Source: Nonlabens sp.
GTDB taxonomy: Bacteria; Bacteroidota; Bacteroidia; Flavobacteriales; Flavobacteriaceae
Length of the DNA: 64,000 nucleotides
Assembly: GCA_020630715.1 (NCBI GenBank)
Contig: JAHDIQ010000010.1
Location: 71,883 to 135,882 of the forward strand
Direction: 5' to 3'
The notes below the pieces were generated by a model that saw nothing but the letters and a program-made list of their open reading frames with translations, did not search any database and had not been told where the DNA came from. A program made the translations under genes and the position numbers. Positions within the stretch are counted from its first letter, which is position 1, and each line of letters opens with the position of its first letter. Shown here in pieces: positions 11,983-32,785 of this stretch.

Positions 11983-12016
11983 TTGATATATCATGTTGAG
12001 TTTTTAGTTACATTTG
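11983..12016 (+). promoter_or_regulatory. Candidate promoter of the regulator gene (TTG at 11983-11985, -7 box TACATTTG at 12009-12016)
   Basis: Exact TAnnTTTG match. The TTG lies 23 nt upstream, slightly wider than the usual spacing. Confidence 0.3.
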
Positions 12017-14824
12017 AGAAACTCAACGATCTTGAAAAACCTAAACTTTTTATTCATTCTTATAGGTTTCTTTTTTCATTGCCATGCGCAAGAGTTACCA
12101 CCTACACAGTATTTTAATCCATCAGTCTATGAGGCTGGTAATCAAAACTGGATGATCGCAGAATCTGATGATCATCAAATTTATATAGCTAATAATAAAG
12201 GATTGTTAGTCTACAATGGAGCTCAGTGGAATCTCTATAAAACTCCTAATGAAAGCATCATGCGATCTGTAAAAATTGATGGTGATCGTGTTTATACAGG
12301 ATGTTATATGGATTTTGGTTACTGGGAAGCAAATGCTACTGGTAGGTTGTCCTATACATCAATTCTGGAACAAACTGGGTTTAGTGTTGAGGAAGATGAA
12401 CAATTCTGGAACATATCTGTTCAGGAGGATTATGTGCTTTTCCAGTCGTTATCCCATATTTATCTGTATGATAAAGAGAAAAATACTATTTCTCCTATCG
12501 TTCAGGATGTGACTATTCATAAATTCTTTACCGTAGAAAGTTCTTTTTATTATCAGGTATTAGGTGAAGGTTTGTATCAAGTTTCAAACGGTAATTCCCA
12601 ATTACTTAGTAGTCAGTCAATTATTAAGGATAAGCCAGTAGTTCATATGTTTGAGCAAAATGGGATGATTTATGTCGTTACAGAGGATTCGGCAATTTAT
12701 GCTCTTAAAGATGATAATGTATCATTGACTAGTAAGTTACAGTTTGATAAACCGGTAACTCTATATAGTGCAGAAGCCTTAGATGATGGGTCTTTATTAT
12801 TAGGAACCATATCCAGTGGCGTCATATCTTCAAATTTAGACGGTAGTGTTAATTACAGCATTAATCAGAATAGTGGATTGGGCAATAATACCTGTCTTTC
12901 TGTTTTTCAGGACAGTAAGAATAATATTTGGTTAGGACTAGATAACGGTTTGAGTTGTGTGAATCAAGATTCATCGTATTTGTTCTATAGAGATCGAGAC
13001 GGTAGTTTAGGAACCGTTTACGCATCTGCAAAATTTGAAAACAAAGTCTTTATAGGAACAAACCAAGGGCTGTTTTCAAAAAATGTCAACGAGAAAGAGT
13101 TTAATTTTATAGAAGGAAGTGCTGGACAAGTATGGTCATTAGATGTGATTGATAATACATTATTTTGCAGTCATAACCTAGGTCTATTTGCACTAGTAAA
13201 TGATCGTTTAGAGTTAGTACATAATACAGGTTCATGGCAAGTTCAGTCTGTACCTGGTAAAATAAATAGTGTACTAGTAGGATCTTATAAAGGCCTTTAT
13301 TTAATAGAGAAAAGAAATAATAGGTGGCAGTTTGAAACTTATGTAGAAGGTTTTAATATCAGTTCAAAGGATGTGGTTATTGAAAGTGATCAAACGGTAT
13401 ATGTAAACCATGAATATAAAGGTGTATTTAAATTAATACTGAATGACTCTTTAAATAAAGTGGTTACGAGTTCTGTAGTTGCTGAATTGCATAAAGGAAT
13501 AGGAAGTGATATGGCCTTATATGACGATGTGTTGTTTTATGCAAAACGAGATACCGTTTTCACAAAAAGCCGTTCTTCTGCTACATTTAGTTATGACCCA
13601 TTACTGAGTGAGCTTTTTAAATCTTCAGAATATACCTCAGGAAGCCTTGAAGTTTCTGGTAATTATTTATGGTGTTTTAATACTAATTACATTCATAGAA
13701 TTGAGTTTGAGGATATCAACGGAGATTATAAGATTAAAAAAATTAAGTATCCTAAAGTAGTAAGAAAGGAAAATACAGGTTATGAGAATTTAACCATGAT
13801 GACTCCTAAAACCTACTTGATAGGATCGTCCTTTGGTTACTCACTATTTGACGACTCTAAGGGTAATTTTGAAGAAGATTTAAACGTTTTTATTTCTAGT
13901 GCTAGTCATATAAAAGAGAATGATTTAAAAACGCTATCCCTTACAGAACCCGTAACTATAGATTACGAGGGAAGTAATATTCAAATTTCATATGCTGTAA
14001 ATAATTATGACGCCACGCGTGTAGTAGAATATCAGCATCAATTATTGAAAAATGATAAAGTAGTTAGTGGCTGGAGCGATTTGACAACTAGCAATACTGT
14101 ATCCTTTGAAAGTTTGCGTTTTGGTGATTATGAATTTGAGGTGCGTTTTAAGAAAATAGATGAGTCACTAAGTGATCCGGCAAGCTATTCATTTACCATA
14201 GGAAGACCTTATTATCTTACTAATACTGCGATCGTTATTTATATTATTCTTACGATACTGCTAGTTGCATTATTGAATGGCTTTTACATCTGGTACTTTA
14301 AGCGACAAAAGAAAAGAGCCCTACAAAAACAGCAAAAAGAATTAGAGTTGCAAAACCTTACTAATGAAAAGAATATCATTGAACTGCGTAATGCAAAACT
14401 ACGCAGTGATATAGAACATAGAAACAGAGAACTTGCCGTTTCAACCATGGCAATGATTAGAAAGAATGAAACTTTAAATGAGTTGAAGAACGAGTTACAA
14501 AAACTCCCTAAAGACAATGCAACCTCTTCACTTAAGAAAATGCTGGATAAAAATTTAAACAGCAAGCAGGATTGGATCACTTTTGAGGAAGCATTTAATA
14601 ATGCAGACAAGGATTTCTTTAAAAAGATCAAGGAGAAACATCCGTCTCTTTCTTCTGGCGATCTCAGACTATGTGTTTATTTAAGATTGAACTTATCATC
14701 AAAAGAAATTGCACCGCTTCTTAATATTTCTCCTAGAAGTGTAGAGATAAAGCGATATCGTTTGCGTAAAAAACTAGGTTTAACGCGTAATGATAGCCTT
14801 ACCAGTTACATTGTTGAGATTTAA
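12014..14824 (+). CDS. One-component transmembrane regulator: periplasmic beta-propeller-type sensor repeats + Y_Y_Y region + TM helix + coiled coil + C-terminal LuxR-type HTH
   Basis: 936 aa. Signal peptide, long repeat-rich sensor, TM segment TAIVIYIILTILLVALLNGFYIWYF, C-terminal LSSGDLRLCVYLRLNLSSKEIAPLLNISPRSVEIKRYRLRKKLGL. No kinase or receiver motifs seen. The start is ambiguous: the TTG at 12014 overlaps the putative -7 box, and the TTG at 12032 would give MKNLNFLFIL... Confidence 0.8.
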   Translation: MRNSTILKNLNFLFILIGFFFHCHAQELPPTQYFNPSVYEAGNQNWMIAESDDHQIYIANNKGLLVYNGAQWNLYKTPNESIMRSVKIDGDRVYTGCYMDFGYWEANATGRLSYTSILEQTGFSVEEDEQFWNISVQEDYVLFQSLSHIYLYDKEKNTISPIVQDVTIHKFFTVESSFYYQVLGEGLYQVSNGNSQLLSSQSIIKDKPVVHMFEQNGMIYVVTEDSAIYALKDDNVSLTSKLQFDKPVTLYSAEALDDGSLLLGTISSGVISSNLDGSVNYSINQNSGLGNNTCLSVFQDSKNNIWLGLDNGLSCVNQDSSYLFYRDRDGSLGTVYASAKFENKVFIGTNQGLFSKNVNEKEFNFIEGSAGQVWSLDVIDNTLFCSHNLGLFALVNDRLELVHNTGSWQVQSVPGKINSVLVGSYKGLYLIEKRNNRWQFETYVEGFNISSKDVVIESDQTVYVNHEYKGVFKLILNDSLNKVVTSSVVAELHKGIGSDMALYDDVLFYAKRDTVFTKSRSSATFSYDPLLSELFKSSEYTSGSLEVSGNYLWCFNTNYIHRIEFEDINGDYKIKKIKYPKVVRKENTGYENLTMMTPKTYLIGSSFGYSLFDDSKGNFEEDLNVFISSASHIKENDLKTLSLTEPVTIDYEGSNIQISYAVNNYDATRVVEYQHQLLKNDKVVSGWSDLTTSNTVSFESLRFGDYEFEVRFKKIDESLSDPASYSFTIGRPYYLTNTAIVIYIILTILLVALLNGFYIWYFKRQKKRALQKQQKELELQNLTNEKNIIELRNAKLRSDIEHRNRELAVSTMAMIRKNETLNELKNELQKLPKDNATSSLKKMLDKNLNSKQDWITFEEAFNNADKDFFKKIKEKHPSLSSGDLRLCVYLRLNLSSKEIAPLLNISPRSVEIKRYRLRKKLGLTRNDSLTSYIVEI

Positions 14825-14944
14825 AGCCTATTTTTTACTTTAAAAAAACTTTACAATAACTATACAGATTGTTGATTTTGTTAAAGTTGAGATCTTGTTT
14901 AATTATGATTAAAATACTGTAAATTAAGTGTTTATGTTTTATTT

Positions 14945-14960
14945 CGCTTTTGCGAAAGCG
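14945..14960. repeat. Palindrome family copy 5 (15/16: CGCTTTTGCGAAAGCG)
   Basis: Intergenic, 146 nt upstream of the 15106 ATG. Confidence 0.85.
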
Positions 14961-15105: not shown

Positions 15106-18100
15106 ATGAAGAAAATTCTTCTAACAGTTATTGTAACCTTGATTACATCGACGTTTGTCCTAGGACAATCGCAAAATGTTAAAGTGGTTCAAAATGCAAG
15201 TGGTCACACCTTAACCGTAGATGGTAAGCCGTTTATGATTAACGGTATGAACTGGGATTATATTCCGGTAGGTGCTAACTACTCTTATGATTTCTGGTCT
15301 AAATCAGATACATTCATTAAAGCTGCTTTAGATTCAGAAATGTCTCTTTTGCAGAATATGAACGTAAATGTTATCAGAGTTTATACGGGAATACAACCTA
15401 AATGGGTGGAGTATATTTATGAGAAATATGGTATTTATACGATGTTAAACCATTCTTTTGGTAGATATGGATTAACTCTAGATGGAGTATGGATACCTAA
15501 CACGGAATATTCAAATCCTGCTGCAAGAAAGTTTTTACTAGCTGAAGCTACAAAAATGGTAAACGATTTTAAGGATACACCAGGTCTTTTAATGTTTATG
15601 TTAGGTAATGAAAATAATTACGGACTTTCCTGGGGTGGTGCTGCTACAGAAGATATTCCTATTGAAACGGAAGGTACGGTCATCACTCGTGCCAGAGCGA
15701 TGTACAAAGTGATGAATGAGGCAACTCTTGCCATGAAAAAGATAGATAGTTCACATCCTATAGCCATATGTAATGGTGACTTGTTGTATTTAGATCTAGT
15801 AAAAGAGCATTGTCCTGATATTGATATTTATGCTACTAATATGTATCGTGGGGTATCTTTTGGTGATGCATTTCAACGCGTTGCAGATGAGTTAGAGAAA
15901 CCTATTATGTTTTCAGAATTTGGTTCAGATGCCTTTAATGCTTTAAGCATGAAAGAAGATCAAAAGATGCAATCTTACTATGTAGTAAATAACTGGAAAG
16001 AGATTTACGCAAACGCAGCTGGTCTAGGAAAAGCAAATAACTCTATTGGTGGTTTCACCTTCCAGTTTAGTGATGGATGGTGGAAAGTAGGACAAACGAA
16101 AGATTTAGATATTCATAATTCAGATGCGGTATGGACAAGTGGTGGATATACCTTAGATACTGAGAATGGTTCAAAAAACATGAATGAAGAGTATTTTGGA
16201 ATATGTGCAAAAGGAAAGTCAGACGCACGTGGTCTATATACTTTGTATCCTAGAGCAGCATATTATGCTCTAAAGGATGTTCACAGTTTAAATCCTTACG
16301 GTGCTGGAATTGATGCCGCATTTGTGGATAATTACTTTGATGGGATTAATCTCATGGAATATGTTTTACAAGCACGTGGTGATAAGGCAGCGGCGGGAAC
16401 TGGTGGTGATGGTGAAATGTTACGTATAAGTAATTTAAGCGCACGCTTTACAACCTTTAATACTGGCGGGACTCTTATAACGACTCCTGATAATCAAGAT
16501 CCTACAGCTAATATTACACCTAATCAATTAGGCTTTGATCATATGCAATCCTACTTTGTAGGAGTCGAGGGAAAACCTGCCGCAAATATGAGAGCAAAGG
16601 TGGATTTAAACATTACCGGAAATGTAGCTCAAAACCCTATCGACGAAATATTCTATGAAAATAGAGCAAGACCAGTAATAGTTGAAGGAGCAAATGGTGA
16701 AGATGTTACTCTAATTGATAATAACCGTTTACAAGTCTATCAAGCAGAATTTGAATGGAATGCAAAAGAGTTTGATCTAAGAGGTTTTTATAGAACCGGT
16801 CACTACCATTGGGGTTATGAAGGTGATTTCTTTAACCTTTATCCAGAAGCAAATTATGGTCCTAATCTGGACATCTATGGAGGAGAAATTTTAGGAGCTG
16901 AGATAGATGGAAAGGGTGTTTTCCAAGGTTTAAAAGCAGCCGTAGGTCCACAATTATGGTGGGGCGCAAATCCTACGATGTTATTTAAATATAGAAAACA
17001 AATAGGTAAATGGGATGTAGCCGGTATTTATCACCGTGATTTTGATCGTAATACAGAATTTGATCCTATTACTGGTGCTCGAGTTATTGATCCAGTGCAA
17101 GCTCGTAGTGGTATTATACCACCATGGGCTACAGAGCGTGCGACTCTTGCAATTCAGAGAGACTTCGGGAAATTTGGTATTATGGTTGGTGGAATTTGGG
17201 GTGGAAGTCCTTTAAATGGATTAGCTTATCAGGATTTTACTGGTGAATCAGGCAATTATACTGTTTTTGAGGATAGAATTAATTCTAATGATAATTGGGG
17301 TGGAAAGGTAAAATTAACTTATGAAGGAGGAAGATTTAACTGGTATGGTCAGGCATCTGCTATGGGATTAGTAGCAAACGGTGGTGCAGATCAAACTCAA
17401 ACTTTCACAGGATGGAGATTAAAAGATAGTGGTAGTGGTAACATGACTAATGTATTATCTGGTTTCACCTATTCAATGGGAGATCTTCAAATTGCTCCTA
17501 ATTTTATGTGGCAAAAACCACTAGTAGATGCGATTCCTAATGATATCGACGGACCAGGAAGATTACGTAATGTAATAGATGATCCATTTGCAGTGAGAAA
17601 TGGTAATCGTGAAATGACAGCAGGTGAGATACTTTTAACTTATGATCCTACACCAGGAACCTGGATGTATCAATGGGATAACGATAGAGCCGAGGATGCA
17701 AAATTTGCAATGAACCTAGGTTTTGTATACCGTCACTTGCCTACAAATATGGATGCACACATAGGTTTCCTAGCAGATCGTACATTCTTTGCATTTCCTA
17801 CCGCTGCACCAGCAGAGGATTTATGGGAGATTAATTCTAGAATGGTCTCAAAATTAAATCCTGAACTTGGTCTTATTGCTAATATGTATTACGGTAATGG
17901 TCAGGCAAATGGTGACTCTGATAGAACGATTACTAGATATGGTGGAGATGTGAGAGCGATTTACAAGAATTTTAAATTAGAAACTCACGCTAGGTTTAAC
18001 GATTGGGGTCCATTTGATTATCATAGAGATTTCAACCTTACGTTTCCTTATCAATTTATGCTAGATATTTCAACAAGTTTAGGAAAACCTGACTGGTTTA

Positions 18101-18288
18101 TTCTACCTAGCACTCGTATAGGTCTAAGAGGAACCTTTAGAGGTTTAAATGAGTTCTCTCCTAGATTTGCGCCTGCTTCAATTCCTGCAGGTACATTTCC
18201 AGCGATTAACCCAGGAAGTGCCGTAGGATTCCCTAACGGATCTGAATGGGAAATCAGAACCTATGTTCACATAAATATTGGTCAATAA
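15106..18288 (+). CDS. Secreted fusion protein: N-terminal clan GH-A (GH2-C / GH158 / GH72-like) TIM-barrel glycosidase-like domain + ~620-aa beta-barrel-like C-terminal region
   Basis: 1060 aa. Signal peptide MKKILLTVIVTLITSTFVLGQ. LTVDGKPFMINGMNW, NVNVIRVY, MLGNENNYG (acid/base-like NE, ~15604-15618), MFSEFGSDAF (nucleophile-like E, ~15910-15924), FQFSDGWW. The C-terminal part is rich in alternating-hydrophobic strands (AKFAMNLGFVYRH, FKLETHARF, EWEIRTYVHINIGQ at the terminus). Confidence 0.6.
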   Translation: MKKILLTVIVTLITSTFVLGQSQNVKVVQNASGHTLTVDGKPFMINGMNWDYIPVGANYSYDFWSKSDTFIKAALDSEMSLLQNMNVNVIRVYTGIQPKWVEYIYEKYGIYTMLNHSFGRYGLTLDGVWIPNTEYSNPAARKFLLAEATKMVNDFKDTPGLLMFMLGNENNYGLSWGGAATEDIPIETEGTVITRARAMYKVMNEATLAMKKIDSSHPIAICNGDLLYLDLVKEHCPDIDIYATNMYRGVSFGDAFQRVADELEKPIMFSEFGSDAFNALSMKEDQKMQSYYVVNNWKEIYANAAGLGKANNSIGGFTFQFSDGWWKVGQTKDLDIHNSDAVWTSGGYTLDTENGSKNMNEEYFGICAKGKSDARGLYTLYPRAAYYALKDVHSLNPYGAGIDAAFVDNYFDGINLMEYVLQARGDKAAAGTGGDGEMLRISNLSARFTTFNTGGTLITTPDNQDPTANITPNQLGFDHMQSYFVGVEGKPAANMRAKVDLNITGNVAQNPIDEIFYENRARPVIVEGANGEDVTLIDNNRLQVYQAEFEWNAKEFDLRGFYRTGHYHWGYEGDFFNLYPEANYGPNLDIYGGEILGAEIDGKGVFQGLKAAVGPQLWWGANPTMLFKYRKQIGKWDVAGIYHRDFDRNTEFDPITGARVIDPVQARSGIIPPWATERATLAIQRDFGKFGIMVGGIWGGSPLNGLAYQDFTGESGNYTVFEDRINSNDNWGGKVKLTYEGGRFNWYGQASAMGLVANGGADQTQTFTGWRLKDSGSGNMTNVLSGFTYSMGDLQIAPNFMWQKPLVDAIPNDIDGPGRLRNVIDDPFAVRNGNREMTAGEILLTYDPTPGTWMYQWDNDRAEDAKFAMNLGFVYRHLPTNMDAHIGFLADRTFFAFPTAAPAEDLWEINSRMVSKLNPELGLIANMYYGNGQANGDSDRTITRYGGDVRAIYKNFKLETHARFNDWGPFDYHRDFNLTFPYQFMLDISTSLGKPDWFILPSTRIGLRGTFRGLNEFSPRFAPASIPAGTFPAINPGSAVGFPNGSEWEIRTYVHINIGQ

Positions 18289-18291: not shown

Positions 18292-19764
18292 ATGCAAAAG
18301 ATGAAAAATATAATAACAAAAAGCAATTTAATCTACCTAATAGCTCTTGTGCTAGTGGTAGGTTGTGAGAGAGAATTGTCTGACGATGCGGTTTTAGCCT
18401 CTTTTCCTAAAAAAGGAGAAATATTTACAGATAACTTTGTAAGTATGGGAAGTGATTTTTACTTTCCTTTTGCTGATGCAAAACCAGATGTATTTTCTGT
18501 AGATATGGAAGAAGGTTATGAAAGTGATGCTTCTATACGCATAGATGTTCCTAACGCTAATGATCCTACTGGTGGTTATGCTGGTGCAATTTTTAGAACA
18601 GATGCTGGCCCTAGGGATTTAAGCGGTTTTGACGCACTAACTTTTTGGGCCAAAGCGTCCCAAGGAGTATCTATTGGTGAATTTGGTTTTGGGTTAGATT
18701 TTGAAGGTGATGTTCATAGAGCTTCCAGGTCTAATGTAAGCTTAAGTACTAGCTGGCAAAAAATCACAATCCCTATTCCAGATGCGTCAAAATTAACTCA
18801 GGAAAGAGGTATGTTCTGGTTTGCTGCAGGTACTCAAGGTACTGGTGGTAATGCTTATACTTTTTGGGTTGATGAAATACAGTTTGAAACTTTAGGAACT
18901 TTAAGACTTGAGAATCCATTTATTTTTGATGGACAGGATTTGTCTAGAGATGTTTTTATAGGAGAAGCAATCGCTTTTGAAAATGTAGGTGTTGTTTTTA
19001 ATTTAGAAAATGGTCAAAATGTTTCTGTTGTTGCTGCACCTGCATACTTTGATTTTGAAACAACTGATGCAACAGTTACTGGACCTATTGTGATTAACAA
19101 CGCTGGTCAAGCAGTAGCACCTATAATATCTAGTAACGGAACGGCCGTTTTAACAGCAACACTAGCTAACACGCTCGCGATGGGTTCATTTACCGTTAAT
19201 GCGGTAGGTGCCTTTCCTCATGCACCAGTTCCTAATAGACCAGCAGCTAATGTGGTTTCATTATTTAGTGATGCTTATGCAAATGTACCCGTTAGACATT
19301 ATAATGGATTTTTTGCACCTTTTCAAACTACCCAAGGTGGTGCTGGTTCAGATCCTAACAACGTAGATATTCAAGCACCATTTGCAAATGGAACACTAGA
19401 TAATATCATTAACTATACGTCATTCAATTTTGTTAGTATAGGAATGTATGAGACGGTATCGCTAGTTGATGTGAGTAGCGCAACTCATTTACATGTTGAC
19501 ATAAACATTAGAGAAAACGTAGATCCAGGAGATTTTATTAGGTTAGAATTAGAAAGTGGAACAGGTGGAACTACATCTGGCGGTTCTTTTACCTTAACCT
19601 CTGCGATGCTCAATAACGTAGATGCAAATGGATGGTTTAGTATGGATATTCCACTATCTAACTTCCCTGGATTTAATGACCCAGCTAACCTAGGTCAGGT
19701 ATTCTTTGTGTCGGATAATACCATTACAGACATTTGGGTAGATAATGTGTATTTCTACAACTAA
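18292..19764 (+). CDS. Surface lipoprotein with two CBM-like beta-sandwich domains and an Ig-like linker (candidate glycan-binding protein)
   Basis: 490 aa. Lipobox LVVGC. Starts 3 nt after the 15106 gene. YTFWVDEIQFETLG and ANVVSLFSDAYANVPV...IWVDNVYFYN are typical ends of carbohydrate-binding jelly-roll domains. Confidence 0.6.
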   Translation: MQKMKNIITKSNLIYLIALVLVVGCERELSDDAVLASFPKKGEIFTDNFVSMGSDFYFPFADAKPDVFSVDMEEGYESDASIRIDVPNANDPTGGYAGAIFRTDAGPRDLSGFDALTFWAKASQGVSIGEFGFGLDFEGDVHRASRSNVSLSTSWQKITIPIPDASKLTQERGMFWFAAGTQGTGGNAYTFWVDEIQFETLGTLRLENPFIFDGQDLSRDVFIGEAIAFENVGVVFNLENGQNVSVVAAPAYFDFETTDATVTGPIVINNAGQAVAPIISSNGTAVLTATLANTLAMGSFTVNAVGAFPHAPVPNRPAANVVSLFSDAYANVPVRHYNGFFAPFQTTQGGAGSDPNNVDIQAPFANGTLDNIINYTSFNFVSIGMYETVSLVDVSSATHLHVDINIRENVDPGDFIRLELESGTGGTTSGGSFTLTSAMLNNVDANGWFSMDIPLSNFPGFNDPANLGQVFFVSDNTITDIWVDNVYFYN

Positions 19765-24600: not shown

Positions 24601-25139
24601 ATCAAGGTGCTAGTGATGAAGTCATAGGTAGAATGTTAGATCATTACTATGAGATGCAAGCTGGAATAGGAGTTCATAAATCGCCAGAATTATACGGTGC
24701 CGTTCCTACAGATCCCTATTCACATACACCAGCCACAAAAGGTGCCCAGCAACCAGGAATGACTGGTCAGGTAAAGGAAGATATCCTAAGTCGCATAGGC
24801 GAATTAGGTGCTTTTATTAAGGATGGTAAGTTGACATTTAAGCCTAGATTGTTAAGAAAACAGGAGTTTTTAAGTAGCTCAAAAAACTTTACATATGTAG
24901 ATGTAAACGGTGAAACGCATACCATCGAATTATCTGTAGGATCACTGGCTTTTACCTATGCACAAGTGCCTGTTATCTATAAAATGTCTAGTCGTGCTGG
25001 AGTTACGATTCATTTGACAAATGGTGAAACGGTAGCATCTGATGATCACGCAATAGATACTTCTTTAAGTAAGGAGATTTTTAATCGCACGCATCAGGTA
25101 AAAATGATTGAAGTAAACATAAATGACGGGTTAAAGTAA
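21669..25139 (+). CDS. Large cytoplasmic GH94-clan-like glycoside phosphorylase candidate (beta-1,3-glucan phosphorylase, GH149-like)
   Basis: 1156 aa with no signal peptide. EGNWRDIFQNW (~23079-23102) and PEWNDANNALVG (23622-23633 encodes EWND) resemble the RDxxQD and DWND catalytic-centre motifs I recall from GH94 phosphorylases. FTGRSGTFFGYEGLGSIYWH resembles a phosphate-binding loop. The size and genomic context fit GH149. Needs an HMM check. Confidence 0.5.
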   Translation: MSITNLHIGTQKARFHNSEITGEVVMINNESYYHIENYDMMRPFFMSIVSNSDHWMFISSNGGVSAGRKNSDNAIFPYYTDDKITELAHTTGSKTIIRVKDGDTLKLWEPFSDRYTGIYNISRDLYKSNLGNKIIFQEHNKDLNLTFKYQWNSSDIYGFIKKSELINHNEHDVHCEILDGMQNILPSGVGEDLQKASSNLVDAYKRTELQEKSGIGIIALSAIIVDKAEPSEALKANLAWSIGVENPIHLVSSLQLNNFRKGLSVVQETDVKAEKGAYFTVEEATISSNTSKKWMYAINVNQSMVDVAQLAHELTDAHSLQQRVEDDIKKGSLNLRNLTAAADGLQVTDDALTNNRHFANTLFNIMRGGIFDDNYRIEKDDFLKYIKAANNTVYKDQLTVLESLPSLFNLDHLHTVAATNTDLDFKRLCIEYLPLKFSRRHGDPSRPWNKFSINTRSEVDGSKILDYEGNWRDIFQNWEALAHSYPEFMEGMIHKFLNASTFDGYNPYRVTKGGFDWEVIEEDDPWSYIGYWGDHQIIYLLKFLEFIKESDPVKLKALSDQELFVYANVPYTIKPYEQILENSKDTIDFNHAQQELIEQRRATIGVDGALVQDANHNIYRVNFIEKLLATVLAKVSNLIPEAGIWLNTQRPEWNDANNALVGNGVSMVTLYYLRRFLSFMQDYLAQLEQSEVAISAELQQMFSGMLATLQQYHGLLSGAISDQDRRTILDGLSQPASDYRERIYSHSFSGDKTAISISDISSFVAITLDYLDHSIVANRRNDGMYHAYNLMTVEDNGEVSISYLPEMLEGQVAVLSAGSLTPEQSLEVMDGLKASALFRPDQYSYILYPEKQLLGFEEKNIIPQELVSGSKLLTQLLADGNHSIVVQNRDGEYHFNSSFNNVKSLKKALNVLEGTKYESLATQERKQLERSFETVFNHKAFTGRSGTFFGYEGLGSIYWHMVSKLVLAVQESSLRAMDQGASDEVIGRMLDHYYEMQAGIGVHKSPELYGAVPTDPYSHTPATKGAQQPGMTGQVKEDILSRIGELGAFIKDGKLTFKPRLLRKQEFLSSSKNFTYVDVNGETHTIELSVGSLAFTYAQVPVIYKMSSRAGVTIHLTNGETVASDDHAIDTSLSKEIFNRTHQVKMIEVNINDGLK

Positions 25140-25204: not shown

Positions 25205-26473
25205 ATGAGATACATAAGCAACATAGTGATTTTAATGCTATTACTAGTAGCATGTAAACCTGTTGCGCCAGATGCTCAAGAAACTAATAAAGAATTGCAA
25301 ATGAACGCAAGTGATATTTTATCTAATCCTGATTATGTAGCAATATCCTACGGTGGTTATAGAGGTGTTTCTAGAGATGAACAACCTACTATTAAAGAAT
25401 TGAAAGAAGATTTAAGAATCATGCACGCAATGGGAATACGAGTCTTGCGTACCTATAACATGCAGTTACCGCATGCTACAAATGTGGTTAAAGCGATATC
25501 CCAATTAAAAGAAAATGATGCCGAGTTTGAAATGTACGTGATGCTAGGCGCATGGATTGATTGTAAAAATGCATGGACCGGTTTACCGGTAGACCACTAT
25601 ATAGAAAGTGAACAAAATGCTGATGAGATCGCGAGAGCAGTTGCGTTAACTAATGAGTATCCTGATATTATTAAAATCATAGCCGTAGGAAATGAGGCTA
25701 TGGTTAAATGGGCAACTAGTTATTACGTCCAGCCAGATGTGATTTTAAAATGGGTGAACCATTTACAGGATTTAAAAAAGAACAACAAACTGGCAAAAGA
25801 TACCTGGATCACAAGTTCAGATAACTTTGCTTCATGGGGTGGAGGCGATTCATTGTATCACGTTCCAGCTTTAGAGGAGTTAATAAGAGCTGTGGACTAT
25901 CTATCGGTTCATACGTATCCCATGCACGATACGCATTACAATCCAGTTTTTTGGGGTGTGAATGAAGATGAAACTCAACTATCAAAGAAAAAGCAAATTG
26001 CCAAAGCCATGTCCAGATCCAGAGATTATGCGATGGCTCAATATGATAGTGTTGTGCGATACATGCACAGTCTAGGTGTTAAAAAACAAGTTCATATAGG
26101 AGAAACTGGATGGGCTAGTTATTCTAATGGACATTATGGTGATAACGGTTCTAAAGCAACAGATGAGTATAAGTTAGGATTATATTATCAATTGATGCGT
26201 GAGTGGACTAAGGACAAAAACATTGCTTGTTTCTATTTTGAAGCTTTTGATGAACAGTGGAAGGATGCGGGAAATCCGCAGGGATCTGAAAATCATTTTG
26301 GACTGATTAATCTTAAATCACAAGCAAAATATCCATTGTGGTCGCTAGTAGATCGTGGCGTTTTTGATAGTTTGAAACGCGATGGAAAACGTATTGCAAA
26401 AACCTATGGAGGGAATTTAAATAGCCTGCTTCAGGATGTGAAATTACCACCAGTTAAAATTATGGCTCACTAA
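25205..26473 (+). CDS. GH17 beta-1,3-glucanase lipoprotein
   Basis: 422 aa. Lipobox LLVAC. IAVGNEAMV (acid/base) and HIGETGWAS (nucleophile), typical of GH17. Confidence 0.75.
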   Translation: MRYISNIVILMLLLVACKPVAPDAQETNKELQMNASDILSNPDYVAISYGGYRGVSRDEQPTIKELKEDLRIMHAMGIRVLRTYNMQLPHATNVVKAISQLKENDAEFEMYVMLGAWIDCKNAWTGLPVDHYIESEQNADEIARAVALTNEYPDIIKIIAVGNEAMVKWATSYYVQPDVILKWVNHLQDLKKNNKLAKDTWITSSDNFASWGGGDSLYHVPALEELIRAVDYLSVHTYPMHDTHYNPVFWGVNEDETQLSKKKQIAKAMSRSRDYAMAQYDSVVRYMHSLGVKKQVHIGETGWASYSNGHYGDNGSKATDEYKLGLYYQLMREWTKDKNIACFYFEAFDEQWKDAGNPQGSENHFGLINLKSQAKYPLWSLVDRGVFDSLKRDGKRIAKTYGGNLNSLLQDVKLPPVKIMAH

Positions 26474-27969
26474 TGAAAAACTTGAATCCTTCTATTTATT
26501 TAATCATAGCTTCATTCCTTATGAGTTGCGAGAACAAATTACCAGAATTAGATACTACGATATATGAAACATCTGCCGCTGGTAACCAACTAACGGTAGT
26601 TTCAGATTTTGAACCTTTAGATTCTGTTACCGTAGTAAGCTTAAATGAAGAAAAAACATATCAAAAAATTACGGGTTTTGGCGGCGCATTTACAGAGTCT
26701 TCTGCCTATTTACTAAATCGATTAAGTAAAGAAAATCGCAATGAAATTTTAGAAGCCTATTTTTCTGAAGATGGAGCAAATTATTCTTTAACACGCACAC
26801 ACATGAATAGTTGTGATTTCTCATTATCACAATATTCTTATGCAGCTGTTCCAGATGATATGGAGTTGAGAAACTTTACGGTAGAAGAAGACCGTGAGGA
26901 TTTAATCCCTATGATTAAAGACGCTATGGCGATTTCAAAAGATGGTTTTAAACTATTTGCATCACCGTGGACAGCACCACCATGGATGAAAGATAATAAT
27001 GAATGGGTAGGCGGTAAATTATTACCAGAATATTACGACACATGGGCATTGTTCTTTTCAAAATACATCGAAGCTTACCGGGAAGAAGGAATTGAATTAT
27101 GGGGTTTTACTGTAGAGAATGAACCACACGGAAATGGGAACAACTGGGAAAGTATGCACTACACGCCAGAAGAGATGACCACTTTTGTGCAGCACCATCT
27201 AGGACCTCACTTAGAAGAAAAAGGTTACGGCGATAAAATCATTCTAGGATATGATCAGAATAGAGCAGGAATTAAAGAATGGGTAGATGTCATGTACGCC
27301 ACACCAGAATCTTCAAAATATTATGACGGTACCGCAATTCACTGGTATGAAAGCACCTATGAAATCTTTGCAGATGATCTACAATATGCACATGAAAAAG
27401 CACCAGATAAATATCTGATTGAAACAGAAGGTTGTGTGGATAGTGAAGTCCCAGCATGGAAAGATGATGCATGGTACTGGAAAAAAGAAGCTACAGATTG
27501 GGGCTGGGATTGGGCTCCAGAGGAACAAAAATATTTACATCCTAAATATGCGCCGGTAAATAGGTACGCACGTGATATCATAGGTTGCATGAATAATTGG
27601 GTAGACGGCTGGGTAGACTGGAATATGGTACTGGATAAACAAGGTGGACCTAACTGGTTTAAGAACTGGTGTGCTGCGCCAGTAATCGTAGATCCAGATA
27701 TTGATGAGGTGTATTACACACCATTATATTATGTGATGGCTCACTTTAGTAAGTTCATACGTCCTGATGCAACGGTTATAGATGTTCAATCTACAGATGA
27801 TGACCTACAAATTACGGCAGCCATAAATCCTGATGGTACTACCGCTGTTGTGGTTTTTAATGAAGGAATGGAAAAGAAGTCCTTTGAATTACGCTTTCGC
27901 GAAAGCGTAACTACCATCAACATCGATGCACAAGCGTTACAAACAATAATGATACCAACTAAAAAATAA
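26473..27969 (+). CDS. GH30 glycosidase (beta-1,6-glucanase / glucosylceramidase family) lipoprotein
   Basis: 498 aa. Lipobox FLMSC. GFGGAFTES, FTVENEPHG (acid/base), YLIETEGC (nucleophile). TAATG overlap with the upstream gene. Contains palindrome copy 27889..27910. Confidence 0.85.
   Translation: MKNLNPSIYLIIASFLMSCENKLPELDTTIYETSAAGNQLTVVSDFEPLDSVTVVSLNEEKTYQKITGFGGAFTESSAYLLNRLSKENRNEILEAYFSEDGANYSLTRTHMNSCDFSLSQYSYAAVPDDMELRNFTVEEDREDLIPMIKDAMAISKDGFKLFASPWTAPPWMKDNNEWVGGKLLPEYYDTWALFFSKYIEAYREEGIELWGFTVENEPHGNGNNWESMHYTPEEMTTFVQHHLGPHLEEKGYGDKIILGYDQNRAGIKEWVDVMYATPESSKYYDGTAIHWYESTYEIFADDLQYAHEKAPDKYLIETEGCVDSEVPAWKDDAWYWKKEATDWGWDWAPEEQKYLHPKYAPVNRYARDIIGCMNNWVDGWVDWNMVLDKQGGPNWFKNWCAAPVIVDPDIDEVYYTPLYYVMAHFSKFIRPDATVIDVQSTDDDLQITAAINPDGTTAVVVFNEGMEKKSFELRFRESVTTINIDAQALQTIMIPTKK
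27889..27910. repeat. Palindrome family copy 8 (perfect 22-bp palindrome TTACGCTTTCGCGAAAGCGTAA)
   Basis: Inside the GH30 CDS. Read as L-R-F-R-E-S-V. Confidence 0.95.
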
Positions 27970-27973
27970 GAAA

Positions 27974-30313
27974 ATGTCTACTACTGTAAATAAAGTTCCA
28001 TTCGGTCAGAAGTTAGCATTCGGCATAGGGATGTTTGCAAATCAGATGTTCCCAGCTATTTTGGGAATATTTATGGTAGTGCTAGTGGAAGATCTGAAAT
28101 TTTCAGGATTGATGTGGGCAATGATTTATTTGTTTCCTAGACTTTTAGATGCTGTTACAGATCCTATTATGGGCTTTGTATCTGATAATACAAAATCTAA
28201 ATGGGGAAGAAGGCGTGTTTATGTTATAATAGGTGCGGTAATTATGTGTGTCTCTTACATTTTTATGTGGCAACTGTTTAAGGAAAACTCTTTACAGTAT
28301 AATTTTTGGTACTTTTTTCTATGGTCAGTAGTTTTTTATATTGGGCTTACCTTTTTTAGTGTTCCTTATGTGGCGATGGGTTATGAAATGAGTGATGATT
28401 TTCATGAAAGAACTAATATTATGGCTATTGCTCAATGGATAGGTCAATGGGCATGGGTGATAGCACCTCTATTCTGGTTGATTATGTATGACCCAGAATG
28501 GTTCCCTAGTGCAGATGTTGCTGCCAGAGAGTTAGCAATTTGGGTCGCGATACCTTGTGCGGTCTGTGCTTTAATTCCAGCTTTATTTATTAAAGGAAAG
28601 TCTACCTTAGAAGAAGATTATGAACCTTTAAATCTGTCTAACATAGGCGGTAGTTTGACAAAAATTGCTGAAAGTTTTAGTGAGGCTTTTAGAATTAAAG
28701 AGTTTAGAAAATTATGTGGTGCAACGTTTTTTATATACAATGCCTTCATGGCGGTTTCATCACTTACATTTTTTGTAATTGTATATAAATTATTTAATGG
28801 TGATACAGAAGCAACTGGAATTTGGGTTTCTTTATTTGGCTGTTTAGGTGCTTTATCTACAACTTTTATCGTTATACCTATTGTTACAAGGCTATCTAGA
28901 AAGTTAGGTAAGAAGAAAGCCTTTATGGTATGTCAAAGTATTTCCATAACAGGATACATTGCGCTTTACTTTTTATTTATACCTGGAAAACCATGGATGT
29001 ACATATTTGCTTTACCGTTATTTTCATTTGGTATAGGTAGTTTATTTACGATTATGATGTCTATGACAGCAGATGTTATTGATATTGATGAATTGAATAC
29101 AGGTAAGCGTAGAGAAGGTACTTTTGGTGCTATTTACTGGTGGATGGTTAAGGTGGGATTTGCAATTGCTGGTGCTTTGAGCGGTGCGATTATTTGGATC
29201 GTAGGTTTTGATGCTGATTTGCCTACCTTAGAACAGCAAGGAGCCGTTGATGGATTGCATGCATTCTTTTGTTTTTTTCCTACTTTAGGGACTTTAGCAG
29301 CGATGTATATCATGCGTAGTTATGATGTTACAGAGGAACGCGCAAATGAAATTAGATCTCAACTTAACGAGCGTAAAAATGTTAAACAACCTGTAAGTTC
29401 ATCTTATTACGCTCTTGATAAATTGAATCAACTAGGGATTAATAATAATGTTGAACCTTTGAGTACTGACGTTCCACTTTCACTGGATAGTTCAGTTCTT
29501 AAAAAATCGTTTTATGATACGTTAAATACAGGGATGCATGGTATCTGTTTTAGTCCTTATAAAGAAGGACAAAACATAGGAGATTATTTATCACAAGGAC
29601 AAATAAAGCAACGTATGGCAGTGGTGCAACCTCATACGTCATGGGTTAGATCTTTTTCCTGTACAGATGGTAACGAGATTATACCTGTTGAAGCAAAAAA
29701 AGCTTCCTTAAACACAATGGTAGGTGCATGGATAGGTAGGGATAAAAAGACTAACGACAAAGAATTAGAATCCTTAATATCAATTTCTAAACAAGGTTAC
29801 ACAGATATTGCAGTAGTAGGAAATGAAGTTTTATTAAGAGGAGATCTGTCTCTTGAAGAATTATTAGCCTATATAAAAACCTTTAAAGAGCAAGTGCCAC
29901 AGGTTAAAGTCGGTTATGTAGACGCGTACTACAAATTTATAGATCATCCGGAGTTGATCGATGCTTGTGATTATGTATTAATTAATTGCTATCCTTTTTG
30001 GGAAGGTTATGAAATAGAAAAAGCAACAGCCTATTTAAACGAAATGTATAGCATCGTTAAAAGTAGAGCAAAAGGCAAAGAAGTTATTATTACTGAGACT
30101 GGATGGCCAGATAGAGGAGATGCAACTGCAAATGCGCTACCATCTAAAGATAATGCGATGCGTTATTTTATAAATACTCAAAAATGGTCACGCGCTAATA
30201 GCTTACCAGTATTTTATTTCTCTTCATTTGATGAATCGTGGAAGGTGCACCATGAAGGAGATGTGGGAGAACGCTGGGGAATTTGGAATCAAAATGAACA
30301 ATTGAAATATTAG
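27974..30313 (+). CDS. Fusion protein: GPH-family (MelB-like) sugar:cation symporter + C-terminal GH17 domain
   Basis: 779 aa. N-terminal RLLDAVTDPIMGFVSDNTKSKWGRRR (GPH signature) and about 12 TM segments. A ~40-aa linker. The GH17 domain starts at ~29500, with VVGNEVL and IITETGWPDRG. This domain is clearly paralogous to the next gene. Confidence 0.8.
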   Translation: MSTTVNKVPFGQKLAFGIGMFANQMFPAILGIFMVVLVEDLKFSGLMWAMIYLFPRLLDAVTDPIMGFVSDNTKSKWGRRRVYVIIGAVIMCVSYIFMWQLFKENSLQYNFWYFFLWSVVFYIGLTFFSVPYVAMGYEMSDDFHERTNIMAIAQWIGQWAWVIAPLFWLIMYDPEWFPSADVAARELAIWVAIPCAVCALIPALFIKGKSTLEEDYEPLNLSNIGGSLTKIAESFSEAFRIKEFRKLCGATFFIYNAFMAVSSLTFFVIVYKLFNGDTEATGIWVSLFGCLGALSTTFIVIPIVTRLSRKLGKKKAFMVCQSISITGYIALYFLFIPGKPWMYIFALPLFSFGIGSLFTIMMSMTADVIDIDELNTGKRREGTFGAIYWWMVKVGFAIAGALSGAIIWIVGFDADLPTLEQQGAVDGLHAFFCFFPTLGTLAAMYIMRSYDVTEERANEIRSQLNERKNVKQPVSSSYYALDKLNQLGINNNVEPLSTDVPLSLDSSVLKKSFYDTLNTGMHGICFSPYKEGQNIGDYLSQGQIKQRMAVVQPHTSWVRSFSCTDGNEIIPVEAKKASLNTMVGAWIGRDKKTNDKELESLISISKQGYTDIAVVGNEVLLRGDLSLEELLAYIKTFKEQVPQVKVGYVDAYYKFIDHPELIDACDYVLINCYPFWEGYEIEKATAYLNEMYSIVKSRAKGKEVIITETGWPDRGDATANALPSKDNAMRYFINTQKWSRANSLPVFYFSSFDESWKVHHEGDVGERWGIWNQNEQLKY

Positions 30314-30315
30314 TT

Positions 30316-31224
30316 ATGTCACATAGAAAAGACCATTATTTTAACCCATCTCAAATTGCTTCTATATCAGAAAAAGGACTGGACGTAAGTGCATATACTT
30401 CTGATGATTTAAAAGCATTATGGAGATCCACTATAGAAAAAGGTGTACATGGAATCTGTTTTAGTATGTATGAAGATGGTCAAGAACCAGGTGACCATAT
30501 CTCAAGAGAACAAGTAGAACGTCGCGTTAAGATTTTAAAACCATATACTAAATGGATACGTTCTTTCTCTTGTATTGAAGGTAATGAGTACGTACCTGAA
30601 TACGCCCATAAACATGGCATGAAAACATTAGTAGGTGCATGGTTAAGTGATGATAAGGAAAAGAATGAGCAGGAAATTGAAGCTTTAATTGAACTTGCTA
30701 AAAAGGGATATGTCAACATTGCAGCTGTAGGGAATGAAGTGATGTATAGAGATGAGCTTACAGAGCAAGAGCTTATTGATTATATTAATAAAGTAAAAAA
30801 AGCATTACCAGAAATTCCTGTAGGATATGTAGATGCATATTATGAATTTACCTCTAGGCCAGCAATTACTCAAGCTTGTGATGTGATTCTTACAAATTGT
30901 TATCCTTTCTGGGAAGGTTGTCCTATTGAATATGGTTTAAATCACATGAATGAAATGTTTCATCAGGCACTAAGCGCTGACTCATCTAAGAAAGTTATTA
31001 TAACAGAAACAGGATGGCCTAATCAAGGAGAAAGCTTTAAAGGCTCTCATCCATCTGATGTTAATGCGATGAAATATTTTATCGATACCCAAAAATGGTG
31101 CGAACACAATAACATAGACTGTTTTTACTTTTCATCTTTTGATGAATCCTGGAAAAAAGGAGATGAAGGTGAAGTAGGAGCTTTTTGGGGATTATGGGAT
31201 AAACATGAACAATTGAAGTTTTAA
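30316..31224 (+). CDS. Cytoplasmic GH17-family protein (no signal peptide)
   Basis: 302 aa. AAVGNEVM, IITETGWPNQG, FYFSSFDESWK. Collinear, roughly half-identical by eye, to residues ~510-779 of the upstream fusion. Starts 2 nt after it. Confidence 0.8.
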   Translation: MSHRKDHYFNPSQIASISEKGLDVSAYTSDDLKALWRSTIEKGVHGICFSMYEDGQEPGDHISREQVERRVKILKPYTKWIRSFSCIEGNEYVPEYAHKHGMKTLVGAWLSDDKEKNEQEIEALIELAKKGYVNIAAVGNEVMYRDELTEQELIDYINKVKKALPEIPVGYVDAYYEFTSRPAITQACDVILTNCYPFWEGCPIEYGLNHMNEMFHQALSADSSKKVIITETGWPNQGESFKGSHPSDVNAMKYFIDTQKWCEHNNIDCFYFSSFDESWKKGDEGEVGAFWGLWDKHEQLKF

Positions 31225-31495
31225 TCTCAGTCAAATTATAATAATAAATCACGAAAAGCATTTCGTAACTTAAATCAAACTGAATAATAACTCAACATAA
31301 ACTCAACATTAACACAAATTATCAATAAAGGTAACACTACATGTTTATTTATATCTAACTCATAATAAGAGTTTTATATGATTTTAAAAAGTATACATGT
31401 TAAAATTTGAATTGTATACGTATTGTAGTTGTGCATAAACTAGATTTTTAATAATCCAAACTTATATTTAACCATTAATAACTCAATCTATTACT

Positions 31496-32785
31496 ATGAA
31501 AAAAATTACTCTATTACTGATTTTATTCCTAACTACCTTAGGATATTCACAGTCTTTACCGCTTGACTTTTCAGATCCACTAGATGCTGGATTCTCTGGT
31601 TTCAACGGAACGACTACATCTGTTATTACAGACCCAACAGATGCTACAAACCAAGTTATTCAATTTGTAGGAGCTGGTGTCGATTTTGATGGTGCAGCAT
31701 TAGCTTTAGATACTTTTATTGATTTATCAGATGATGCTAACAATACCATCACGATGCGTATTAATGCTCCAGATGCAACAACTCGTACGCATCTATTAAA
31801 ATTAGAAGGTGGCTCCTCAGGTGCTACTGAATTATTTTTTGATACCACAATGATGGGCTGGCAAACTGTAAGTGTTGATTTCCCTGCTGGATTGGGTACA
31901 GAGTATCCAACACTCGTGATCTTTACAGATTCTGGTGCTGGTAATACTGCCACTGGTACATATTTAATTGATGATATAGATGGTCCTAATGGTGCGACAA
32001 TTGCTGTAGATCCTATACCTATGACTCCTGCTCCTATTCCATCTAATCCAGACGCTGAAGTTTACAGCATTTACAATGATACTAACGGATATACAAATAT
32101 TTTTCCTGTAGCCTACGATTTTGGTACACTAGCTGGTCAACCTGACTTAGATTCTGGTGCGGCAGTAAATAATGCCTTAAAATTTAATTTTTCAACTGCC
32201 GGCTGGGGACAAGGTGAAGCATTACAAGATTTATCTGCCTACTCATTCTTTTCTTTTCATTATTGGGCATCTGCAGGAACTACTGGATTTAATATTGAGT
32301 TAATCGCTAATACTGGTGGTACCGTAGCCGGAACAATTTACGAATATGGAGGAACTAATGCTACTGTAGTAACAGACTCATGGCAAACAGTTAATATCCC
32401 AATCTCGACATTCACATCTTTAGGTTTTGATTCTTCTAACTTCTTTCAGTGGAAATTCGATCCTTACCAGCAGTCAGTGACTAATGGAGGAATAGTTTAT
32501 GTTGATAACATAATGTTCACTCAAAATGTATTAAGTGTTCAGTCAAATGATAATCTGAATTTATCAATTTTCCCTAATCCATCAACAGATTCATGGAATA
32601 TTAATTCGCCTGATTCAACCATTAACAGCATTCAAGTGTATGATATGACTGGTAAATTGGTTATCTCGCAAGAAGCAAATGATACCAATTCTAGAATTGA
32701 TGGTGCTAATCTTAATAGTGGAATTTATATTGCTAGAATCATTTCTGGCGATGCTGTACAGAGTATTAAATTAATCAAAGAATAA
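31496..32785 (+). CDS. T9SS-secreted protein with CBM-like glycan-binding domains
   Basis: 429 aa. Signal peptide ...TTLGYSQ. Two jelly-roll-like domains. C-terminal type-A sorting domain (LSIFPNPSTDSWNI...GIYIARIISGDAVQSIKLIKE). Confidence 0.7.
   Translation: MKKITLLLILFLTTLGYSQSLPLDFSDPLDAGFSGFNGTTTSVITDPTDATNQVIQFVGAGVDFDGAALALDTFIDLSDDANNTITMRINAPDATTRTHLLKLEGGSSGATELFFDTTMMGWQTVSVDFPAGLGTEYPTLVIFTDSGAGNTATGTYLIDDIDGPNGATIAVDPIPMTPAPIPSNPDAEVYSIYNDTNGYTNIFPVAYDFGTLAGQPDLDSGAAVNNALKFNFSTAGWGQGEALQDLSAYSFFSFHYWASAGTTGFNIELIANTGGTVAGTIYEYGGTNATVVTDSWQTVNIPISTFTSLGFDSSNFFQWKFDPYQQSVTNGGIVYVDNIMFTQNVLSVQSNDNLNLSIFPNPSTDSWNINSPDSTINSIQVYDMTGKLVISQEANDTNSRIDGANLNSGIYIARIISGDAVQSIKLIKE

Follow-up and report, generated by a model that had tools for sequence, protein, structure and literature searches.

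How do laminarin oligosaccharides reach the periplasm of a flavobacterium whose glucan utilisation locus encodes neither a SusC-like transporter nor a SusD-like lipoprotein? This question is raised by a gene cluster at positions 12014-32785 of a 64,000-nt stretch of Nonlabens sp. DNA (Flavobacteriaceae; GenBank assembly GCA_020630715.1, contig JAHDIQ010000010.1, positions 71,883 to 135,882 of the forward strand), which we refer to as the window. The locus is an intact, BguR-regulated laminarin (beta-1,3/1,6-glucan) cluster of the published "variant B" type, and all 11 of its open reading frames (ORFs) are uninterrupted. Its regulator gene is followed by the gene for a 1060-residue protein, here called X1060, which is predicted from a structural model to be a GH158-like glucanase fused to a ~24-stranded outer-membrane (OM) beta-barrel, and then by the gene for a 490-residue lipoprotein, LP490. 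We lean towards the view that the oligosaccharides cross the OM through a laminarin-type SusC/SusD pair encoded at a distance from the cluster, and that X1060 and LP490 form a separate, SusCD-independent OM module.

A preliminary description of the window, drawn from the sequence alone, had reported that the cluster lacks any TonB-dependent receptor or SusD homolog, and profile searches bore this out. The Plug, TonB_dep_Rec, CarboxypepD_reg and SusD families had zero matches among the ORFs of the locus in Pfam and NCBIfam, and X1060 and LP490 still matched no SusC/SusD-type family when rescanned against Pfam at E <= 10. The same Pfam scan detected CarboxypepD_reg and Plug (in locus L066, TonB_dep_Rec as well) and SusD_RagB in sister loci, which served as a positive control. 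Across the full 64 kb, a six-frame tblastn search for SusC/SusD genes with three Pfam-verified SusC/SusD pairs gave no match below E = 0.5, and all remaining window ORFs of at least 600 aa encode housekeeping proteins (PPDK, BipA, PPIase, aconitase and IDH). A strictly canonical polysaccharide utilisation locus (PUL) has its carbohydrate-active enzyme (CAZyme) genes arranged around adjacent susC and susD genes; the present locus departs from this plan and is, in PULDB terms, a "CAZyme cluster". It does carry the set that characterises laminarin PUL variant B (a GH16, two or more GH17 and a GH30, with GPH/MFS, directed at beta-1,3/1,6-glucan): GH16 and GH30 are present once each, together with three GH17 domains and an MFS_2 transporter.

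The absence of SusC/SusD at the level of the locus is already known, the same genus included, and the present locus adds an instance. The supplement of Kappelmann et al. 2018 (PMC6298971) cites variant B of the laminarin PUL as a case in which susCD is at times missing, and most such strains are said to own another laminarin PUL for import. It lists, for Nonlabens sp. Hel1_33_55, PUL 276 ("laminarin B"), which has no local susCD, and reports a laminarin-type susCD pair isolated elsewhere in that genome; this orphan pair is 56% and 68% identical to the laminarin-PUL SusC and SusD, respectively, of Leeuwenhoekiella. PUL 276 has the same genes as the locus of the window, given there in reverse order as FAD dehydrogenase, GH3, Por-CTD, GH17, GH17-GPH, GH30, GH17, hypothetical (now GH149), GH16 and hypothetical. 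Kuhaudomlarp et al. 2018 (PMC5827456) likewise note GH149 genes of Bacteroidetes within CAZyme clusters that have no susCD-like pair, and a 2026 paper on Muricauda lutaonensis presents a LuxR-"GH2"-GH16-GH149-GH17-GH30-MFS cluster with no local susCD described; SusC is named in that paper solely in the title of a cited reference, and SusD nowhere.

These variant B laminarin PULs (Kappelmann et al. 2018; that of Formosa in Unfried et al. 2018; PUL 276; the Muricauda lutaonensis cluster) resemble the locus of the window in families and gene order, in their PKD and Por-CTD proteins and in their LuxR/BguR regulator, and PUL 276 and the Muricauda cluster share with it the lack of a local susCD. Judged from its published listing, PUL 276 differs in an extra GH3 beta-glucosidase where the window has two hydrophobic ORFs, and otherwise shows no substantive difference at the level of the locus. 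The preliminary description had concluded that OM import is unexplained by canonical components. Its premise, that no susCD is encoded locally, stands; "unexplained" is an overstatement, since a distal susCD pair, which the preliminary description had named among its own possible refutations, has been published for a congener, and X1060 itself contains a predicted OM barrel.

X1060 and its partner lipoprotein

X1060 is encoded by the first gene of the surface operon, which the preliminary description had left unidentified. Its type I signal peptide (aa 1-21) is followed by a TIM barrel at aa ~22-400 (nt 15169-16305), which AlphaFold2 (AF2) modelled at pLDDT 80-97. The sole Pfam match of X1060 is a weak one to Glyco_hydro_2_C (aa 36-290, E = 1.5e-8); Glyco_hydro_2_N and Glyco_hydro_2 had no match in Pfam, and the protein therefore lacks the architecture of a GH2 enzyme, which joins a sugar-binding domain at the N-terminus and an Ig-like domain to the TIM barrel. 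For this region GH158 ranked first in a PDB sequence search and was also the top Foldseek match (2.6e-14), and a 118-sequence profile compared with the PDB returned GH158 9oro at 7.5e-9 and BuGH158 at 3.4e-6, versus ~0.015 for GH2 enzymes. Both catalytic glutamates, E169 as acid/base (in GNENNYG) and E271 as nucleophile (in SEFG), are the same throughout the 118 sequences, which span two phyla, and align with the motifs of 9oro. We predict from the model and these motifs that the N-terminal domain is a GH158-like retaining glucanase of clan GH-A. Identity to characterised GH158 enzymes is about 14-20%; these enzymes (BuGH158, PDB 6pal; GH158(Pro), PDB 9oro/9p26) provide the best fold and profile match to aa ~25-400, share the GNE and TEFG/SEFG motifs and likewise belong to beta-1,3-glucan loci, but they are soluble proteins or lipoproteins of ~400 aa with an Ig-like C-terminal domain, whereas X1060 continues into a 620-aa membrane barrel.

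This barrel was modelled at aa 439-1059 (nt 16420-18282), beyond two linker helices at aa 404-429. The C-terminal ~620 aa match no Pfam family at E = 10 and have no sequence relative in the PDB. The AF2 model was built from 118 sequences across two phyla, with a divergent clade added, and reached pLDDT 85.8 and pTM 0.75; a first model from 35 close homologues had a pLDDT of 58 and was discarded for claims about the barrel. DSSP applied to the larger model gave ~24 antiparallel strands of 7-17 residues, in which even strands lead into turns of 2-3 residues and odd strands into loops of 20-37 residues. This alternation of short turns and long loops is the signature of a transmembrane beta-barrel, with strand 1 starting on the periplasmic side. 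Foldseek matched the region to OM barrels at a probability of 1.00 and E values from 1e-9 to 1e-7 (BtuB3 of Bacteroides at 1.8e-9, MOMP of C. jejuni, OpdQ, OprC, PfeA, Omp38 and BenF), although the TM-scores are low (0.30-0.39), indicating that the barrel has no near structural relative. Distant homologues of X1060 end in aromatic C-terminal beta-signals (...YYVLSF, ...YFQYFF and ...YLNIKW). Within Flavobacteriaceae the barrel is 75% conserved versus 69% for the catalytic domain, and several of its long loops hold residues that are invariant across phyla. The modelled pattern of strands and turns would by default place the TIM domain in the periplasm; the helical linker before strand 1, and a variant of the family that bears a CBM4_9 domain, are also compatible with display of this domain on the surface. 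Barrel-only homologues of ~600 aa, which lack a signal peptide or start in mid-sequence, are probably truncated gene calls and were left unused.

LP490 has acidic residues after its lipobox cysteine, and comprises a sandwich resembling carbohydrate-binding modules (CBMs) 11 and 30, a Big_2 Ig-like domain and a further C-terminal beta-sandwich. Pfam matches in the family (29 orthologues) were to Big_2 in 14, CBM30 in three and CBM_11 in two, and a profile of LP490 compared with the PDB found Ig-like and CBM domains exclusively; no SusD family was among the Pfam families reported for LP490 or its 28 orthologues. The gene starts 3 nt after that of X1060, and the same succession recurs with an orthologue in 78 of 80 related loci. 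Its sequence suggests that LP490 is a partner of X1060 resembling a surface glycan-binding protein (SGBP), not a protein of the SusD fold.

In outline, the two proteins recall SusC and SusD: both systems have a large OM barrel protein whose gene is followed within a few nt by that of a ~490-aa glycan-binding lipoprotein, both are the first pair after the regulator, and in both the barrel protein is far better conserved. A misread SusC/SusD pair was nonetheless ruled out by the Pfam, NCBIfam and PDB searches, by hhalign and by the AF2 model. Unlike SusC, X1060 has no Plug, CarboxypepD_reg extension or TonB box (Pfam and NCBIfam; its N-terminus is the TIM barrel in the model), and its beta-barrel is preceded by a TIM barrel; SusC-like barrels have 22 strands, a profile of the C-terminal region reached an hhalign probability of at most 1.7% against 12 SusC proteins of sister loci, and the likeness to the barrels of TonB-dependent transporters (TBDTs) is generic, at the level of the fold (TM-score ~0.32-0.35). 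SusD is an alpha-helical TPR protein, whereas LP490 is an all-beta CBM/Ig protein.

Other known systems come close in one respect or another. Type Va autotransporter enzymes such as EstA keep an N-terminal enzyme covalently on a C-terminal OM barrel, with a helical linker before the first strand. X1060 resembles them in this enzyme-linker-barrel plan, but they have 12 strands and the Pfam Autotransporter domain, whereas X1060 has ~24 strands and no Pfam family; the Autotransporter beta-domain (PF03797) had no match to X1060 in Pfam, which sets it outside type Va. TonB-independent OM barrels that pass oligo- or polysaccharides include LamB/ScrY, ChiP, CymA, AlgE, BcsC and PgaA, none of which, to our knowledge, bears a fused glycoside hydrolase. 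At the level of the fold X1060 matches porins such as MOMP, OpdQ and Omp38, and it has no sequence similarity to these sugar-passing barrels. In the marine literature the X1060-type gene is labelled "GH158" in some laminarin PULs and "GH2" in others (Muricauda lutaonensis paper), and the published descriptions of variant B give its homologue just one of these labels, with no membrane barrel mentioned. We found no description of a glycosidase-barrel fusion, or of a membrane barrel on an X1060-type protein, in the open-access full-text literature (including a 2026 structural paper on GH158, a preprint on the laminarin CBM, the paper on the Muricauda PUL and a review of bacterial glycoside transporters from September 2026), which is not proof of novelty. 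The glucanase-barrel fusion is apparently undescribed, and is currently masked by the annotation "GH2 TIM-barrel domain".

Conservation within and beyond Flavobacteriaceae

The comparison of synteny that the preliminary description had suggested was made on 80 genome loci with X1060, drawn from numerous genera of Flavobacteriaceae. These loci keep BguR-X1060-LP490-GH16-(PKD/CBM)-GH149-GH17-GH30 as their gene order, and the SusCD-less arrangement recurred, with a bguR orthologue directly abutting X1060 in 59 of them. Co-oriented SusC-SusD(-SGBP) genes were present in the cluster in 15 loci only, and in some sister loci bguR is separated from X1060 by susCD together with an SGBP gene; the 15 loci with both indicate that X1060 and SusCD are not mutually exclusive. 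Identities across loci ranged from 66 to 84% for X1060, from 35 to 58% for LP490 and from 37 to 57% for BguR, which places X1060 among the best conserved proteins. Relative to the window, X1060 was ~67-69% identical in susCD-bearing loci and 66-71% identical in most others, and this similarity suggests an unchanged task for X1060 in loci with and without a local susCD.

The placement of a short sequence element, CCTATAC(AA), also bears on the position of X1060. The element lies just 3' of bguR. In 41 of 59 SusCD-less loci it stands 200-300 nt upstream of the X1060 gene, while in eight of ten SusCD loci it was upstream of SusC, not X1060. Upstream of GH149 it is rare (4 of 56), and its background frequency is one per 6 kb. 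Most Nonlabens loci, that of the window among them, are without the element in this orientation; in the window there is a reverse copy alone, at -113. We consider CCTATAC a candidate BguR or promoter element; its placement suggests that X1060 inherits the slot next to the promoter, which in sister loci belongs to SusC.

The X1060 family is large, with at least 4980 matches at E <= 1e-5, and extends beyond Bacteroidota; the C-terminal module alone forms 487 clusters at 50% identity. Spirochaetota encode fusions of ~1000-1070 aa (Treponema bryantii, Gracilinema caldarium, Thiospirochaeta perfilievii and Spirochaeta dissipatitropha), and the fusion family is found in Myxococcota as well (metagenome-assembled genomes of Myxococcales, cluster P0126). 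Architectural variants carry an extra N-terminal CBM4_9 domain (1218 aa) or an N-terminal extension of ~300 aa (1351 aa). In all four spirochaete loci that were compared (Table 1), the X1060 homologue begins directly beside, or within the end of, a CBM9_1-like gene encoding 263-312 aa, and at least three of the four products have a lipobox. Three of the four loci encode a GH16, and three the solute-binding protein of an ABC sugar transporter, two of them along with permeases; no further OM protein was called in the four loci, and we know of no SusCD in Spirochaetota. The Thiospirochaeta locus also encodes three GH17 proteins, one of which is 53% identical to the cytoplasmic GH17 of the window, and a GH149 with 43% full-length identity to its counterpart in the window. 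As far as gene content can tell, the link between the fusion and beta-1,3-glucan catabolism holds across phyla. Homology between LP490 and the spirochaete CBM9-like partner was considered and rejected: hhalign gave a probability of 6% and BLAST was blank, and the two are analogous at most.

Routes across the outer membrane

On the explanation to which we incline, laminarin oligosaccharides would enter the periplasm through a distal, laminarin-type susCD pair of the kind documented for Nonlabens sp. Hel1_33_55. X1060 and LP490 would tether a beta-1,3-glucanase to the OM, and X1060 may itself pass oligosaccharides without TonB. Several points weigh against this explanation. The distal susCD is extrapolated from that congener, whose X1060 is 70% identical to that of the window, and the window represents 64 kb of the genome; the congener's orphan pair is itself only presumed to be induced by laminarin and required for growth on it. 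In about four-fifths of the related loci, susCD is missing from the surrounding +-10 kb. The X1060 homologues of spirochaetes occur in beta-1,3-glucan loci with no other OM candidate, which favours a transport role, and a barrel that is more conserved than the enzyme domain and has invariant loops would not be expected of a mere anchor.

These same points bring up the possibility, which we regard as real but doubtful, that X1060 and LP490 are themselves the OM import system: LP490 would capture laminarin, the GH158-like domain would cut it at the mouth of the barrel and the products would diffuse inwards without TonB, making susCD dispensable. Tentatively, the gradient could be held downhill by periplasmic hydrolysis, MFS-GH17 symport and cytoplasmic phosphorolysis. 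This would fit the position of X1060 as first gene after bguR, the slot of SusC in sister loci, and the contrast between a well-conserved X1060 and a poorly conserved LP490, an asymmetry of the SusC/SusD type. It would also fit the tighter constraint on the barrel than on the enzyme domain, the extension of the family to Spirochaetota and Myxococcota, the pairing of X1060 homologue and CBM9-like partner in all four spirochaete loci compared, with ABC transporter and GH16 genes in three each and no other OM protein called, and the presence in the locus of one enzyme-transporter fusion already, in the inner membrane. Against it, the transport function is conjectural, susCD is retained beside X1060 in 15 of the 80 loci, the congener has an orphan laminarin-type susCD, and a plug-less barrel of ~24 strands would need occluding loops to keep the membrane barrier; moreover, selfish uptake of FLA-laminarin has so far been ascribed to SusCD (Unfried et al. 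2018). With equal reserve we would entertain the broader claim that X1060 and LP490 are an unrecognised TonB- and SusCD-independent OM machine for beta-1,3-glucans, the actual route in SusCD-less flavobacterial clusters (that is, in most of them), and kept in Bacteroidota, Spirochaetota and Myxococcota.

An explanation with less ascribed to X1060 is that it is purely a membrane-anchored or periplasm-facing glucanase, and that uptake proceeds by general porins or an unlinked TBDT after extracellular hydrolysis by GH16. The GH16 lipoprotein, which is plausibly surface-exposed, and the protein secreted by the type IX secretion system (T9SS) could serve such external hydrolysis, and Maribacter species use dispersed, non-PUL genes for growth on laminarin; however, marine Flavobacteriia with the same enzyme set show selfish uptake ascribed to SusCD, and the conservation of barrel and loops is left unaccounted for, and we consider this explanation improbable. 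Least probable by far is that the cluster is a decaying or mis-assembled PUL from which susCD was recently deleted. Sister loci with susCD and an SGBP gene between bguR and X1060 do exist, but the 11 ORFs are intact, 59 of the 80 genomes, spread over many genera, show the same tight SusCD-less spacing, and the proteins are 55-84% identical across genera; the comparative data effectively refute decay.

Laminarin is among the largest carbon fluxes of the ocean, and SusC/SusD expression serves as a field proxy for the glycans that are consumed. The SusCD-less form is the majority of the 80 X1060 loci and would consequently be missed by SusCD-based PUL detection and by proteomic proxies, a point already raised in the literature; what is added here is that these clusters open with a conserved OM protein of a predicted, undescribed architecture. 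If the barrel conducts, it would provide a second, energy-independent route of glycan import in Bacteroidota and could account for beta-glucan uptake in spirochaetes, and if X1060 is an importer, enzyme-transporter fusions would be present in both membranes, alongside MFS-GH17. If it acts as an anchor only, it would still be a new mode of displaying a glycosidase on the diderm envelope.

Layout of the locus and minor features

The coordinates of the ORFs had been given correctly in the preliminary description, as had the gaps of the second operon, and its assignments of a sensor/LuxR regulator, GH16, PKD protein, GH17, GH30, symporter and cytoplasmic GH17 domains were supported by Pfam and NCBIfam (Table 1). 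Its phosphorylase-like protein is a GH149, and the laminarin-type character that it proposed for the locus is upheld by the enzyme set, the gene order and the synteny with related genomes. The two tightly packed gene blocks that it described are also recovered: the gaps are 3, 26 and 44 nt in the first block and 65 (25139->25205), -1 (26473/26473), 4 (27969->27974) and 2 nt (30313->30316) in the second. For the glycan-binding proteins, one of them T9SS-exported, the outcome was mixed, in that the T9SS sorting signal was confirmed and the glycan binding of the same protein is weakly indicated (CBM_11 at E 0.0018, under the cut-off of that family).

Table 1. Positions of the features discussed, in window coordinates unless another locus is named
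Feature	Position	Strand	Description
BguR-type regulator	12014-14824	+	936 aa; Pfam: Y_Y_Y at 24.8 bits, GerE at 22.8 bits (each slightly under its gathering cut-off), beta-propeller
X1060	15106-18288	+	1060 aa; GH158-like TIM barrel fused to predicted outer-membrane beta-barrel
LP490	18292-19764	+	490-aa CBM/Ig lipoprotein; lipobox Cys25
GH16 endo-beta-1,3(4)-glucanase lipoprotein	19791-20648	+	Pfam Glyco_hydro_16 1.3e-25; lipobox LLNSC
PKD-domain lipoprotein, CBM-like C-terminal domain	20693-21469	+	PKD_4 1.8e-15; lipobox readable
GH149 beta-1,3-glucan phosphorylase, cytoplasmic	21669-25139	+	No signal peptide; NCBIfam NF058639
GH17 lipoprotein, probably periplasmic endo-beta-1,3-glucanase (FbGH17A-like)	25205-26473	+	Pfam GH17 7.1e-9; lipobox LLLVAC
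GH30 lipoprotein, putative beta-1,6-glucosidase debranching laminarin, by analogy with FbGH30	26473-27969	+	Pfam GH30 9.7e-80 and GH30C; lipobox readable
GPH/MFS_2 symporter with C-terminal GH17 (FbGH17B type)	27974-30313	+	MFS_2 1.1e-62, aa 16-454; GH17 1.5e-13, aa 691-779; TIGR00792
Cytoplasmic GH17	30316-31224	+	No signal peptide; Pfam GH17 1.3e-11
T9SS-secreted protein, type A C-terminal sorting domain	31496-32785	+	Por_Secre_tail 6.5e-14; TIGR04183 5.8e-17
Intrinsic-terminator-like hairpin closing the locus	32807-32833	+	11-bp stem with 5 GC pairs, then T-run
Copies of CGCTTTCGCGAAAGCG	2668, 4468, 8269, 11097, 14945, 21584, 25157, 27892, 35912, 39166, 42769, 49410, 55594, 61218		
Spirochaete loci with CBM9_1-like gene and X1060 homologue	L081 9217-13141; L082 9060-13003; L083 3833-7647; L084 8172-12117		

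The regulator consists of a signal or transmembrane segment, a beta-propeller sensor, Y_Y_Y, a single transmembrane helix (seen in the translation), a helical linker and a GerE/LuxR helix-turn-helix, and the Pfam scan found no HisKA, HATPase or REC (kinase or receiver) match in it. The BguR preprint defines this regulator as a protein of 850-1050 aa with a periplasmic propeller and Y_Y_Y, a single transmembrane segment, a C-terminal GerE and no phosphorelay domains, encoded next to a beta-glucan locus; in size, architecture and position the regulator of the window agrees with this one-component definition. In F. agariphila, BguR is required for laminarin-based growth and for induction of the PUL. 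A 115-aa low-complexity antisense ORF at 14284-14631 on the minus strand lies wholly within bguR and is almost certainly no gene.

Among the enzymes, the GH149 assignment comes from the equivalog NF058639, which matched over the full length (aa 17-1152) at 1749 bits against a cut-off of 1150, and the C-terminal domain of the PKD lipoprotein has a weak match in the CBM4 that belongs to laminarinase 16A of T. maritima (1gui, E 0.0023). Of the core enzymes characterised in Formosa (Unfried et al. 2018), GH30 removes branches, GH17A acts as an endo-glucanase and GH17B, fused to the MFS transporter, as an exo-glucosidase. Signal peptides, lipoboxes and domain content predict that LP490, the GH16 and PKD-CBM lipoproteins and the T9SS protein reside at the surface or exterior and the GH17 and GH30 lipoproteins in the periplasm. 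X1060 is placed in the OM by its model, the GPH-GH17 fusion is predicted to be in the inner membrane, and the second GH17 and GH149 are predicted to be cytoplasmic. One locus would then have enzymes fused to proteins of either membrane, GPH-GH17 in the inner and, by prediction, X1060 in the outer.

Outside the cluster proper, the T9SS gene is separated from a gene for an FAD-linked oxidase by two small, highly hydrophobic ORFs (109 and 157 aa, 32944-33758), neither of which has a Pfam family. A 515-aa ORF at 53417-54964 on the minus strand had no Pfam family at E <= 0.1 and no SusD similarity.

We also considered a palindrome found upstream of both operons, CGCTTTCGCGAAAGCG, as a BguR operator, and rejected it: its 14 copies in the window include ones inside unrelated genes, and it occurs in Nonlabens loci only. 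The sequence is a perfect 16-bp palindrome with 14 copies in 64 kb versus 0 expected, and its extended consensus is TT[T/A]-core-[A/T]AA. Copies are both intergenic and intragenic, have no larger common flanks and, within GH30, encode LRFRESV. Among 82 loci, the palindrome was limited to the five from Nonlabens, each with 3-5 copies per 23 kb; like the closest homologues of the locus, it points to a Nonlabens genome. It seems to be a dispersed signal specific to the genus, similar to repetitive extragenic palindromes or to uptake signals, rather than a regulator site of the locus.

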